DNA of 64,000 bases from Escherichia coli (GTDB taxonomy: Bacteria > Pseudomonadota > Gammaproteobacteria > Enterobacterales > Enterobacteriaceae). Positions within the stretch are counted from its first letter, which is position 1; each line of letters opens with the position of its first letter. The stretch lies in assembly GCF_003018255.1 (NCBI RefSeq), contig NZ_CP027440.1. The stretch is one strand, 5' to 3'. The notes beneath the pieces were generated by a model. That model ran no database searches, was not told the origin of the DNA, and saw only the letters and a program-made list of their open reading frames with translations. This document shows, in pieces, positions 12,143 through 16,617 of this stretch. The position numbers and the translations under genes were made by a program.

Positions 12143-12281
12143 ATGGTTATCCCCGCTGACGCGGGGAACATAAGTTCGACAACTTAAAAAATGATAACAA
12201 GTCCGGTTTATCCCCGCTGATGCAGGGAACATAATAAAAACTTTAACTAGTTCGGTTTATCCCTGTTTTTACAAGGAATAT
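12143..12281 (-). CRISPR. Decayed type I-E CRISPR remnant (3 degenerate repeats, 2 spacers)
   Basis: Repeat-like units at about 12143-12171, 12204-12232 and 12253-12281 (for example cggtttatccccgctgatgcagggaacat), progressively diverged from the consensus. Confidence 0.7.
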
Positions 12282-12735
12282 TAACTACACTCGATGTCTT
12301 TAGAATAAAAGACAATACGAATCGTACTTTATCAATTTTCATTTAAAGTATGAACTGGATATCTTTATTCATAAGAACAATTCATCAACAGCGTATAGAG
12401 GCGGTTATGTAAAACCGCTCATTAGCCTCAAAACAAAGACAAATTTCCAGATTTATTACTTAATCAATGAATAACAAGCTTAAAAAATACACTGTAATTC
12501 TAAAGAAAAAATTAACAGGCATTAATTCAATATTAAAAAAATAATAGATTAAAATTTCTTAACGATTTAAGTATCATACAAATAACACTTTGATTAAATT
12601 TAATTTTTTGTATCGATAATTGTGAACTTCTCTGGCATGGAGAACTATTTTGAACATGAGGTGTTACGTGGATATGTTGCTTATTACAAGTACAGCTAAT
12701 ATAAAAACTTGAGAAAGAGATAACGGGTTATATGG

Positions 12736-13069
12736 TGGTTTATCCCCGCAGGCGCGGGGAACTCATAGAGAAAAGAAACGGCAGCTTTGCCACTTCCGGT
12801 TTATCCCCGCTGGCGCGGGGAACTCCGCGTTTCTAATCTCACCGCCACGGCGATCAACGGTTTATCCCCGCTGGCGCGGGGAACTCACCCCTTTAACGTC
12901 ACCAGACCGCTAACGACGCGGTTTATCCCCGCTGGCGCGGGGAACTCGCGTAACCATTTTGATGGCGCTACCGAAATGGCGGTTTATCCCCGCTGGCGCG
13001 GGGAACTCGATCAACGGCCTGGCGGCTGCCTCTGAAATCTCGGTTTATCCCCGCTGGCGCGGGGAACTC
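12736..13069 (-). CRISPR. Type I-E CRISPR array, 6 repeats and 5 spacers of 32 nt
   Basis: 29-nt repeat cggtttatccccgctggcgcggggaactc (reverse complement of the E. coli I-E repeat) at 12736, 12797, 12858, 12919, 12980 and 13041; spacers at 12765-12796, 12826-12857, 12887-12918, 12948-12979 and 13009-13040. Confidence 0.95.
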
Positions 13070-13408: not shown

Positions 13409-14080
13409 TCAGGCAATATTTAGATATTTATGTGTTTGCATCGACAAACGCCAATTACGCGCAATGCAGGTTTCAATGCACAAACGTGTGGCATCATCCT
13501 TTTGGCTAATCGGCTGCAGTGCAATGACTCGCGGTTTATCATCGGTCAGCGTTGCCAGTAGTTCATCCAGTGCTTCAATATCACGTACGCGCCCCACTGG
13601 ATGCTTGATTTCGTTGGCTCGCTCCAGTGCCTGTGACAACACTTCATAGCCGCCGCGCATGTTCAGCTTTGGTGATACGGTAACCCAGGTATTCGGTGTG
13701 CAGCGTACCTCATGAGTACCACTGGTTTCAATCTGGCAGCTAAAACCATTCTTTTCGAGCAGATCAGTCAGTGGTAGCAAATCATGAATGCAAGGCTCAC
13801 CACCCGTAATCACCACATGCCGCGCGGTGTATCCCTGGCGACCAATGACAGCCAGCAAGTCTTCACTGCTCGCCGCCCCCCACTTATCACTCTCTTTGGT
13901 CTTCGCCAGAATGCTGAAAAGGGAGACTTCCCGATCCTCAAGCTTTTCCCAGGTGTGTTTGGTGTCGCACCAGGCACAGCCAACCGGGCATCCCTGTAAA
14001 CGAATAAAAATGGCGGGGACGCCGGTAAAGTAACCCTCACCTTGCAGGGTCTGGAACATCTCGTTAATCGGGTACTGCAT
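13409..14080 (-). CDS. queE: 7-carboxy-7-deazaguanine synthase (radical SAM)
   Basis: 223 aa, MQYPINEMFQTLQGEGYFTGVPAIFIRLQGCPVGCAWCDTK with the CxxxCxxC-type radical SAM cluster motif. Confidence 0.9.
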   Translation of the reverse strand: MQYPINEMFQTLQGEGYFTGVPAIFIRLQGCPVGCAWCDTKHTWEKLEDREVSLFSILAKTKESDKWGAASSEDLLAVIGRQGYTARHVVITGGEPCIHDLLPLTDLLEKNGFSCQIETSGTHEVRCTPNTWVTVSPKLNMRGGYEVLSQALERANEIKHPVGRVRDIEALDELLATLTDDKPRVIALQPISQKDDATRLCIETCIARNWRLSMQTHKYLNIA

Positions 14081-14374
14081 AGCATTCTCTGTGAAGTGGA
14101 TAATTGTTAATTATTGCAGATCCTGCCACAACAATCATGTCTTATTAACATTCTGTTACAGGCAGGTTTAAAGAAAAATGAGAAACAGATCGTTAATAAT
14201 AAAAGGGAGTAACGTATTATGTCAGAAATAAATAAAGTAAAGGGATTTAATCATGTCAAAAACATTCACCAAAATTATACTTATTTTTTTCTGTGTTCGT
14301 TTTTAATTATAACGAATCTCAAATTACCGATGCCGCCGTCAATTTATTTATCCAGCTTTAATGGGACATTTATA

Positions 14375-15244
14375 ATGCGCTATTTCATACTAATATTCAC
14401 ATTCGTGTGTTCCTTTGTTGCAGCCCAACCAACTATTGTCCCACAATTACAGCAACAAGTTACGGATCTTACGAGTAGCTTAAACTCACAAGAAAAGAAA
14501 GAACTGACGCGGAAGTTAGAATCTATTTTCAATAATACCCAAGTACAAATTGCTGTATTAATTATTCCCACAACCAAAGACGAGACAATTGAACAATATG
14601 CTACAAGGGTTTTTAACAATTGGCGTTTAGGAGATGCCAAACGCAATGATGGGATACTGATCATTGTTGCCTGGTCGGATCGCACTGTCCGCATCCAGGT
14701 AGGTTATGGGCTGGAAGAAAAGGTAACCGATGCTCTGGCTGGAGATATCATCCGTAGCAACATGATACCCGCATTTAAACAACAAAAATTAGCTAAGGGA
14801 TTAGAGTTAGCTATAATCGCTTTGAATAACCAACTCACTTCACAACACCAATATTCGGCTAATCCTTCAGAAAGTGAATCAGCGTCTTCCAGCGATCATT
14901 ACTACTTTGCTATTTTTTGGGTATTTGCAGTGATGTTCTTCCCTTTCTGGTTTTTTCATCAAGGCAGTAATTTTTGTCGCGCATGTAAAAGCAGTGTCTG
15001 TATTTCAGCAATCTATCTTTTAGATTTATTCCTGTTCTCCGATAAAACTTTTTCCATTGCTGTATTTTCCTTCTTTTTTACTTTCACCATATTTATGGTC
15101 TTTACCTGTTTATGTGTACTTCAGAAAAGAGCATCAGGTAGAAGTTATCATTCAGACAACAGCGGTTCCGCTGGAGGCTCAGGCGGCGGGTTTAGCGGCG
15201 GTGGCGGTTCTTCTGGCGGTGGCGGCGCATCCGGCCGCTGGTAA
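14375..15244 (+). CDS. ygcG: TPM-domain membrane protein with glycine-rich C-terminal tail
   Basis: ORF 14219..15244 trimmed to [19 protein letters not shown] (signal-peptide-like); internal TM segments; tail [26 protein letters not shown]. Confidence 0.75.
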
Positions 15245-15303
15245 CTCAACCATAAAAAACGCCAGCCCGAAGGCTGGCATTTTTAAATCAGATAAAGTCA
15301 GGC

Positions 15304-16617
<1,314 letters not shown>

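Follow-up and report, generated by a model that had tools for sequence, protein, structure and literature searches.

Escherichia coli ygcG, which we examined in a 64,000-nucleotide stretch of E. coli DNA (contig NZ_CP027440.1; hereafter the window), encodes a TPM-domain membrane protein. Its nearest relative of solved structure, BA41 of Bizionia argentinensis (PDB 5ANP), is the membrane-anchored member of a Bacteroidota TPM gene pair. Full-length BA41 resembles YgcG in its layout, with an N-terminal segment, the TPM domain, a hydrophobic region and a Gly-rich tail that ends in GGGGASGGW, and in related Bacteroidota loci the gene order is lemA, a short TPM gene and a long TPM gene. The TPM fold also occurs in Psb32/TLP18.3, which takes part in the repair and assembly of photosystem II, and in a subunit of the mycobacterial CIII2CIV2 supercomplex; in these cases it is extracytoplasmic, membrane-tethered and accessory to large complexes. 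Bacillus subtilis YdjH, a TPM protein of the pspA-ydjGHI operon, has PspA and a band-7 protein as partners rather than LemA, and is likened to YgcG by description.

BA41 is the best match of YgcG both in sequence (E = 1e-23) and in fold (TM-score 0.89, root-mean-square deviation (rmsd) 2.4 Å). The two proteins share 34-37% identity over the TPM domain, in which YgcG has Q108 and E115, and YgcG differs from BA41 in having lost both lemA and any BA42-type partner. Psb32/TLP18.3 and the supercomplex subunit are much more distant (15-17% identity); E. coli has no photosystem, and YgcG scores 36.7 against a cut-off of 160 with the Psb32 equivalog model.

A remnant of a lemA–TPM operon

The gene lies within a plus-strand open reading frame (ORF) at 14219-15244, and its own ATG at 14375 gives a product of 289 amino acids:

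14375-15244 (+): ygcG coding sequence, 289 amino acids plus stop (ORF list, Pfam, RefSeq annotation of the identical strain)

Bases 14081-15303 are 100% identical to E. coli strain JNE23-011, in which RefSeq calls exactly 14375-15244 as ygcG, ‘TPM domain-containing protein’, and alignment with 73 relatives backs ATG 14375 as the start. The match to the Pfam family TPM_phosphatase (E = 5.5e-36; 123.8 bits against a cut-off of 22.1) identifies ygcG as a real gene and not a chance ORF. It is an already known, annotated E. coli y-gene of a known family; the gene name and the TPM domain proposed in an earlier sequence-only reading of this DNA were both correct.

We compared the locus with 80 related loci of other taxa (one genome per species; beta-, gamma-, alpha- and delta-proteobacteria, Bacteroidota, Spirochaetes and others). 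At 64 of the 80, the gene immediately before is a lemA in the same orientation, and at least two TPM genes follow one another at 33; lemA was also upstream in all three loci looked up singly. At many related loci LemA carries a lipoprotein signature, LSGC-GYN. Immediately upstream of ygcG in the window there is only a degraded 5′ stub of lemA (14253-14306), and the missing intact gene is best read as a secondary loss.

Fuller versions of the locus occur within Escherichia. In E. albertii (L011) the order is queE, lemA, three TPM genes and eno, and long lemA–tpm DNA is present in 1455 of 5426 complete E. coli genomes (~27%; near-complete in 1103), including O157:H7 and B2/extraintestinal pathogenic (ExPEC) strains. 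The short yqcG+ygcG form is found in 3923 of the 5426 at a coverage of at least 80%. The first 207 nucleotides after queE (14081-14287) are 83% identical to the long form (L003, L004, L006 and L007) and 81% identical to E. albertii, and this homology reaches about 35 nucleotides into lemA, that is, into its first codons. At the other end, the last 129-750 nucleotides of the cassette are common to the long form at 93-96% identity. What is missing in the window between these shared ends is ~2.65 kb, comprising lemA beyond roughly codon 25, tpmA and tpmB. The 5′ end of ygcG aligns to the 5′ end of tpmC (score 13.5, shuffles 2.1 ± 1.5), and this alignment, together with the 207-nucleotide homology into the lemA start, places the end points of the deletion. 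These comparisons show that ygcG is the last gene (tpmC) left of a four-gene operon after a deletion of ~2.65 kb, as in K-12 and most E. coli. A parsimonious reading of the sequences is that lemA-tpmA-tpmB-tpmC between queE and eno would be the ancestral state in Escherichia, with the K-12 and window state a deletion derivative. An origin of ygcG by tpmA/tpmC recombination that kept the lemA-stop/tpmA-start junction, considered because both junctions have the same 13-nucleotide spacing, was rejected, as the junction alignment scored 6.5 against 4.0 ± 2.1 for shuffles.

The cassette of E. albertii and of long-form E. coli sits in the same slot between queE and eno and matches the window in the sequence upstream (81-83% identity), in the 3′ end that encodes the tail and in the terminator (93-96%). 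From codon 60 on, ygcG and the last gene of the B2 cassette are 96% identical. Codons 1-59 of ygcG have diverged strongly from tpmC of the long cassette (nonsynonymous divergence dN 0.47; synonymous divergence dS saturated), and the transmembrane regions of ygcG and of ‘pure’ long-cassette tpmC (L003, L007) have unrelated sequences. With LemA and two paralogues gone, K-12 is a poor model for YgcG, and long-cassette strains (O157:H7, B2 ExPEC, E. albertii) are better ones. In a limited literature search we found no statement of the K-12 remnant state, of the YgcG tail as a hallmark motif or of yqcG as a lemA relic; the framing may be useful for a family that is still unsolved and exceeds 20,000 sequence clusters.

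Across E. coli the queE–eno interval is a recombination mosaic (L003, L004, L006, L007; H19-H25, H41-H45). In B2 strains an intact operon has a tpmC/ygcG hybrid in fourth place; a JL05-type variant, seen in about 340 genomes, has a truncated tpmA followed by an unrelated 120-amino-acid ORF; and some strains have IS1 insertions in lemA or ygcG.

Domain architecture and the C-terminal motif

YgcG is an inner-membrane protein of the BA41/‘YgcG’ branch of the TPM-domain family. From the N terminus it consists of a signal peptide, the TPM alpha/beta domain, a Ser/Glu-rich linker, three transmembrane helices and a 36-residue Gly/Ser tail:

14375-14425 (+): predicted Sec signal peptide, residues 1-17, probable cleavage site V-A-A / Q-P (hydrophobicity peak 2.1)
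14459-14827 (+): TPM domain, residues 29-151, predicted periplasmic (Pfam PF04536, PDB, AlphaFold2 (AF2), Foldseek)
14891-15121 (+): three predicted transmembrane helices, residues 173-193, 197-221 and 224-249 (hydrophobicity, AF2)
15134-15241 (+): Gly/Ser-rich C-terminal tail, residues 254-289, predicted cytoplasmic (composition, positive-inside pattern)
15191-15241 (+): family C-terminal motif, residues 273-289 (alignment invariance)

The Pfam match spans profile positions 1-123 of 125. Sequence matches in the PDB are led by BA41 (5ANP, 1e-23), 7TBR (2.6e-21) and 2KW7 (8.9e-19). In the AF2 model the TPM domain has a predicted local distance difference test score (pLDDT) of 91-98, with strands at 29-31, 58-64, 93-99 and 104-110 and four helices; the central four-stranded sheet is flanked by helices, as in the TPM fold. 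Foldseek TM-scores are 0.89 to 5ANP (rmsd 2.4 Å), 0.88 to 7TBR and 0.76 to TLP18.3. After BA41 the relatives include 7TBR, 2KW7, TLP18.3, BA42, Psb32, LMTP1 and the TPM-fold subunit of the mycobacterial CIII2CIV2 supercomplex, matched by Foldseek as chains 6ADQ_J, 8HCR_J, 8OVC_V and 6HWH_O. Weak Foldseek matches to serralysin beta-roll proteases (E about 2) were given no interpretation. An exhaustive HMMER scan (E ≤ 1e-3) collected 21,343 cluster representatives, which makes the family very large. Among named profiles, the NCBIfam search returned only NF047379 (Psb32), at 36.7 bits and below its cut-off of 160, and PF17175 (MOLO1; 16.4 bits) and PF17174 (DUF5130; 14.6 bits) fell below the gathering threshold of 27. 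The profile searches thus gave no well-characterized function, which agrees with the sequence-only reading; its signal-peptide-like N terminus and C-terminal transmembrane segments were likewise recovered, as the hydrophobic peak of 2.1 and as three hydrophobic stretches that coincide with the AF2 helices.

Within the TPM signature RIEVGYGLEG, YgcG keeps 8 of 10 positions and differs at Q108 and E115 (window 14696-14721). Position 108 is E in 70 of 72 relatives and position 115 is G in 67 of 72. The Q108/E115 form was present in every E. coli ygcG-type allele that we inspected (window, BL21 and the B2 hybrid). Equivalent N-terminal hydrophobic segments are present in the aligned relatives, and charge-delimited segmentation finds three hydrophobic segments in 93 of 112. 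The part of ygcG that encodes the transmembrane region is T-rich (G+C content 0.33) and its product very Phe-rich.

The tail contains 16 Gly and 10 Ser among its 36 residues (G+C content 0.65) and ends with GGGG-x-x-GGGG-A-S-G-x-W, an instance of the family form GGGG-x-x-GGGG-[AS]-S-G-x-W-COOH. A GGG[AS]SGxW terminus occurs in 135 of 140 full-length cluster representatives, with Trp as the last residue in 132; each representative stands for one 50%-identity cluster and was taken from the top matches, ranked by a score that includes the tail, so that the 135 of 140 describe the YgcG/BA41 branch and not all TPM proteins. Among the columns that do not vary across 74 aligned sequences are G275, G277, G278, G282-284, S286 and W289. 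Mean conservation is 0.87 over the last 17 residues, compared with 0.57 for the TPM domain and 0.22 for the transmembrane region. The DNA that encodes the motif is 95% identical between otherwise diverged cassettes, and all three TPM paralogues of the long E. coli cassette end in [AS]S[GD]RW; short BA42-type TPM proteins have no such tail. PDB matches of the tail to major histocompatibility complex and G-protein-coupled receptor chimaeras were set aside, being to synthetic (G4S)n linkers only. The Gly/Ser tail is the signature of the family and its most conserved stretch, not low-complexity junk. The sequence-only reading had called it an unusual low-complexity tail: it is there, ending at residue 289, but it is not unusual, given that the motif ends 135 of 140 relatives. 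So precisely conserved a C terminus offers a handle for mutagenesis.

Predicted topology and a possible docking model

The TPM domain is predicted to be periplasmic and the tail cytoplasmic, on the basis of the signal peptide, the positive-inside rule, the lipoprotein nature of the LemA partner and the lumenal or extracellular site of other TPM domains. The family charge pattern across 112 relatives is as follows:

Just before the first hydrophobic segment: K+R 1.85, D+E 2.46
Loop after the first hydrophobic segment: K+R 2.57, D+E 0.49
Fifteen residues after the last hydrophobic segment: K+R 2.1, D+E 0.64

In the AF2 model of full-length YgcG, the last nine residues form a beta-strand with a pLDDT of ~90, and once residues 1-157 are removed the same nine residues become low-confidence coil, at 46-58. 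The predicted order may be an artefact, may show a real tendency of the motif to bind TPM domains, exploited in trans, or may mean that the topology is wrong.

Adjacent second TPM proteins of ~153-165 amino acids, with neither signal peptide nor transmembrane segment, are encoded at 25 of the 80 loci (for example, L030 4801-5361 and L057 2114-2581). They end in a conserved NELPDxPVVL-like motif, and one from Bacteroidota is a BA42 orthologue (E = 1.5e-26). From its sequence, the short BA42-type protein of lemA–TPM operons is presumably cytoplasmic. We found no BA42-type gene in any Escherichia queE–eno cassette examined.

The dependence of the predicted strand on residues 1-157, the cytoplasmic charge pattern of the tail and the neighbouring BA42-type proteins at 25 of 80 loci suggest a speculative and decidedly improbable model, in which the terminal peptide (…GGGGASGxW) would be a docking element for a TPM domain and the system would form a TPM-to-TPM relay across the membrane, for envelope-stress sensing or complex assembly. 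In such a module, a periplasmic LemA lipoprotein would be combined with the periplasmic TPM domain of a YgcG/BA41-type protein; the three transmembrane helices and the flexible Gly/Ser tether would carry the terminal peptide; and the peptide would plug into the product of the neighbouring gene, a BA42-type TPM protein that has no signal peptide and is presumably cytoplasmic. Were this so, the E. coli tail would be a conserved plug without a socket, or would bind something else.

yqcG as an apparent lemA relic

Upstream of ygcG, the alignments locate what remains of the start of the operon:

14081-14374: AT-rich queE–ygcG intergenic and regulatory region (G+C content 0.31-0.32)
14219-14374 (+): yqcG relic, beginning at the same ATG as the 46-amino-acid yqcG of K-12 and BL21
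14253-14306 (+): ancestral lemA start (ATG 14253), now a 17-codon stub (lemA 5′ alignment)

The 5′ ends of lemA align with the window and BL21 with a score of 29.5, compared with 7.6 ± 2.9 for shuffles. The lemA lipoprotein signal (…IFIFNLSGC) is still recognizable in the window DNA, and the lipobox is lost. The YqcG sequence …KIIFIFSVLVFNDNEYK… lies in the same frame as, and aligns with, the lipoprotein signal peptide of LemA, …FIAFIFIFNLSGCGYNDIQT…; this frame was compared by alignment with BL21, strain 572, Esc31 and lemA (L002 3139-3279; L004 4332-4400). In K-12 the yqcG frame joins an upstream ATG to the lemA relic through an A-run that is shorter by 1 nucleotide, and strains 572 and Esc31 keep a lemA-like spacing, where the Prokaryotic Genome Annotation Pipeline (PGAP) marks yqcG as ‘frameshifted’. 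From these alignments, yqcG seems to be what is left of the 5′ signal-peptide region of lemA, read from the upstream region of the ancestral operon. Such an origin would explain its stress regulation and its frequent frameshifts. RefSeq names the 46-amino-acid YqcG of K-12 and BL21 ‘cell envelope stress response protein’.

In the window, yqcG is broken by two 1-nucleotide homopolymer insertions, in an A5 run at 14258-14262 and a T7 run at 14284-14290, and its frame runs without a stop into ygcG as a 341-codon ORF at 14219-15244. PGAP calls yqcG a ‘frameshifted’ pseudogene in the identical strain JNE23-011. The sequence-only reading placed ygcG correctly among its neighbours and left out its status as a lemA–TPM remnant, yqcG itself and the frameshift that joins it to ygcG, all of which were found here.

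Regulation of this region has been reported for K-12. The queE–ygcG intergenic region is described as a ‘promoter island’ that is associated with H-NS and horizontally acquired (PMC3661553), and it contains a sigma-S chromatin-immunoprecipitation peak (PMC4447067). Phosphorylated PhoP binds the yqcG region in vitro and affects queE, and in ΔmgrB cells the deletion of yqcG leads to higher queE expression and more filamentation (PMC4974570). On the strength of these PhoP and deletion effects, the AT-rich relic region also serves as regulatory DNA for the divergent queE. A Flavobacterium mutant under membrane stress shows induction of lemA and of a TPM gene.

Function and alternative explanations

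We regard it as probable, on balance, that YgcG is an orphaned membrane protein of a lemA operon, with its TPM domain a docking or assembly module of an envelope-maintenance system that has lost its partners and is now weakly constrained. By analogy with Psb32/TLP18.3, the supercomplex subunit, MOLO-1 and the YdjH–PspA pair, the TPM domain would serve membrane-protein complexes, at their outer face, as an accessory module for docking or assembly. Paired with LemA, it would be part of a module for envelope stress or maintenance, and not a dedicated phosphatase; the stress-linked expression of yqcG, lemA and TPM genes points to such a role. The authors of two comparative-genomics studies have argued that TPM is chaperone-like rather than a phosphatase (PMC11237479; bioRxiv 2025.01.14.632903). 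Between the window and BL21, ygcG has 15 synonymous and 12 nonsynonymous differences, and queE and eno have no nonsynonymous differences. From its ratio of nonsynonymous to synonymous rates (dN/dS) of 0.22 we infer that ygcG is still under purifying selection, weakened relative to queE and eno but real. The protein in this strain would be a partnerless remnant and poorly expressed.

Several observations weigh against this interpretation. The assembly-factor role draws by analogy on distant paralogues (15-17% identity) and on gene context, and literature searches on ygcG, yqcG, LemA and TPM yielded regulatory and passing mentions, and the Cupriavidus necator changes noted below, but no study of what the E. 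coli proteins do. The AF2 strand suggests that the tail contacts the TPM domain or the N-terminal part, which would clash with a topology that puts them on opposite sides of the membrane. The loss of LemA, the E108Q and G115E changes, the IS1 insertions and the frequent yqcG frameshifts also fit slow decay. An enzymatic role is also possible, because in-vitro ATPase/ADPase or phosphatase activities have been reported for BA41, BA42 and TLP18.3.

YgcG would then be a periplasmic, membrane-anchored phosphatase or nucleotidase with a catalytic TPM domain that acts on nucleotides or phosphoesters. The Pfam name ‘TPM_phosphatase’ implies as much; BA41 is described as an ATPase/ADPase, and BA42 and TLP18.3 as phosphatases, in cited references; metal sites are reported in several TPM structures; and the domain in YgcG is well conserved and confidently folded. 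However, the reported activities are in vitro, in a field without consensus, and both comparative-genomics papers argue against a phosphatase role (PMC11237479; bioRxiv 2025.01.14.632903). YgcG has, moreover, Q108 and E115 inside its RIEVGYGLEG signature, and catalysis would leave the invariant C-terminal motif and the obligate linkage to lemA unexplained, so that we judge it improbable that YgcG is primarily such an enzyme. It is unlikely, although a serious alternative, that ygcG of the short cassette is a functionless leftover, drifting towards a pseudogene and kept as cheap and poorly expressed. Its partner lemA and two paralogues are gone, two near-invariant positions (108 and 115) have changed, a dN/dS of 0.22 is much higher than that of its neighbours, IS1 insertions and truncated variants circulate in the population, and the region is AT-rich, with H-NS association there in the published K-12 data. 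Yet 3923 of 5426 complete genomes keep the frame open, the dN/dS value falls clearly short of 1 and the tail motif has not changed; B2 strains keep the ygcG-type 3′ part as the last gene of an intact operon, and Q108/E115 is not confined to orphans.

Two further alternatives concern the product and its neighbourhood. The real protein in this strain could be a 341-amino-acid YgcG that starts at the yqcG ATG (14219) and carries 52 extra residues before the signal peptide. That ATG has the better Shine–Dalgarno sequence (GGGAG at 14205-14209, 9 nucleotides upstream), RefSeq uses it as the start of the yqcG coding sequence in BL21-derived strains, the frame is uninterrupted into ygcG, and gene callers produce the 341-amino-acid protein (cluster P0002, 207 database sequences). 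But the fusion hangs on two slippage-prone homopolymer runs and is rare, with only 2 of the 5426 complete genomes matching the window at 99% identity or more; no homologue of the extension appears in the family alignment, PGAP treats it as a pseudogene, and the internal ATG at 14375 is still available, so both products could arise. We therefore hold it very improbable that the long form is the real product. Least probable by far, to the point that we give it almost no weight, is that ygcG is tied in function to the CRISPR array near it or serves in anti-phage defence. It has only position in its favour, ygcG being ~1.3 kb from the array. A CRISPR-like array occurs within 4 kb at none of the 80 related loci, although the same test detects the array of the window; B2-type strains, in which no array was called between ygcE and queE, keep the lemA–TPM operon; and queE, in the opposite direction, sits between array and ygcG. 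A PADLOC search gave no meaningful match (best DrmB, E = 0.016). The adjacency is a positional coincidence, and a functional link to the CRISPR locus is effectively refuted.

A YgcG-family protein of Cupriavidus necator acquired recurrent G253W/W253G changes in two independent laboratory-evolution studies, under halotolerance and under glycerol with divalent metal cations (PMC10091555; bioRxiv 10.1101/2023.10.24.563758).

Surroundings of ygcG

The gene order in the window is ygcE, the CRISPR array, queE, ygcG, eno and pyrG, in agreement with the earlier placement of ygcG between the CRISPR/queE locus and eno:

13409-14080 (-): queE, neighbour of ygcG
15304-16602 (-): eno, neighbour of ygcG and convergent with it
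beyond eno (-): pyrG
15261-15288: GC-rich hairpin GCCAGCCCGAAGGCTGGC with T/A runs on both sides (terminator consensus match only)

The CRISPR array, at ~12553-13069 between ygcE and queE, has a 61-bp periodicity and the repeat core CGGTTTATCCCCGCTGGCGC; the repeat test places it at about 12.8-13.1 kb of the window. An AT-rich stretch before it (12250-12700, 27% G+C) is leader-like. In B2-type strains (L004) only ~400 bp separate ygcE and queE, and no array was called there.

That ygcG is AT-rich, as had been noted, is reflected across the cassette (14081-15303), in which G+C content is 0.39 against 0.51 for the whole window and dips locally to 0.31-0.37. At third codon positions it is 0.37 for ygcG, compared with 0.52 for eno and 0.54 for queE. 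The hairpin at 15261-15288 looks like a bidirectional intrinsic terminator common to the convergent ygcG and eno, a putative assignment made from its sequence, and it falls within the stretch that the cassette types share at 93-96%.

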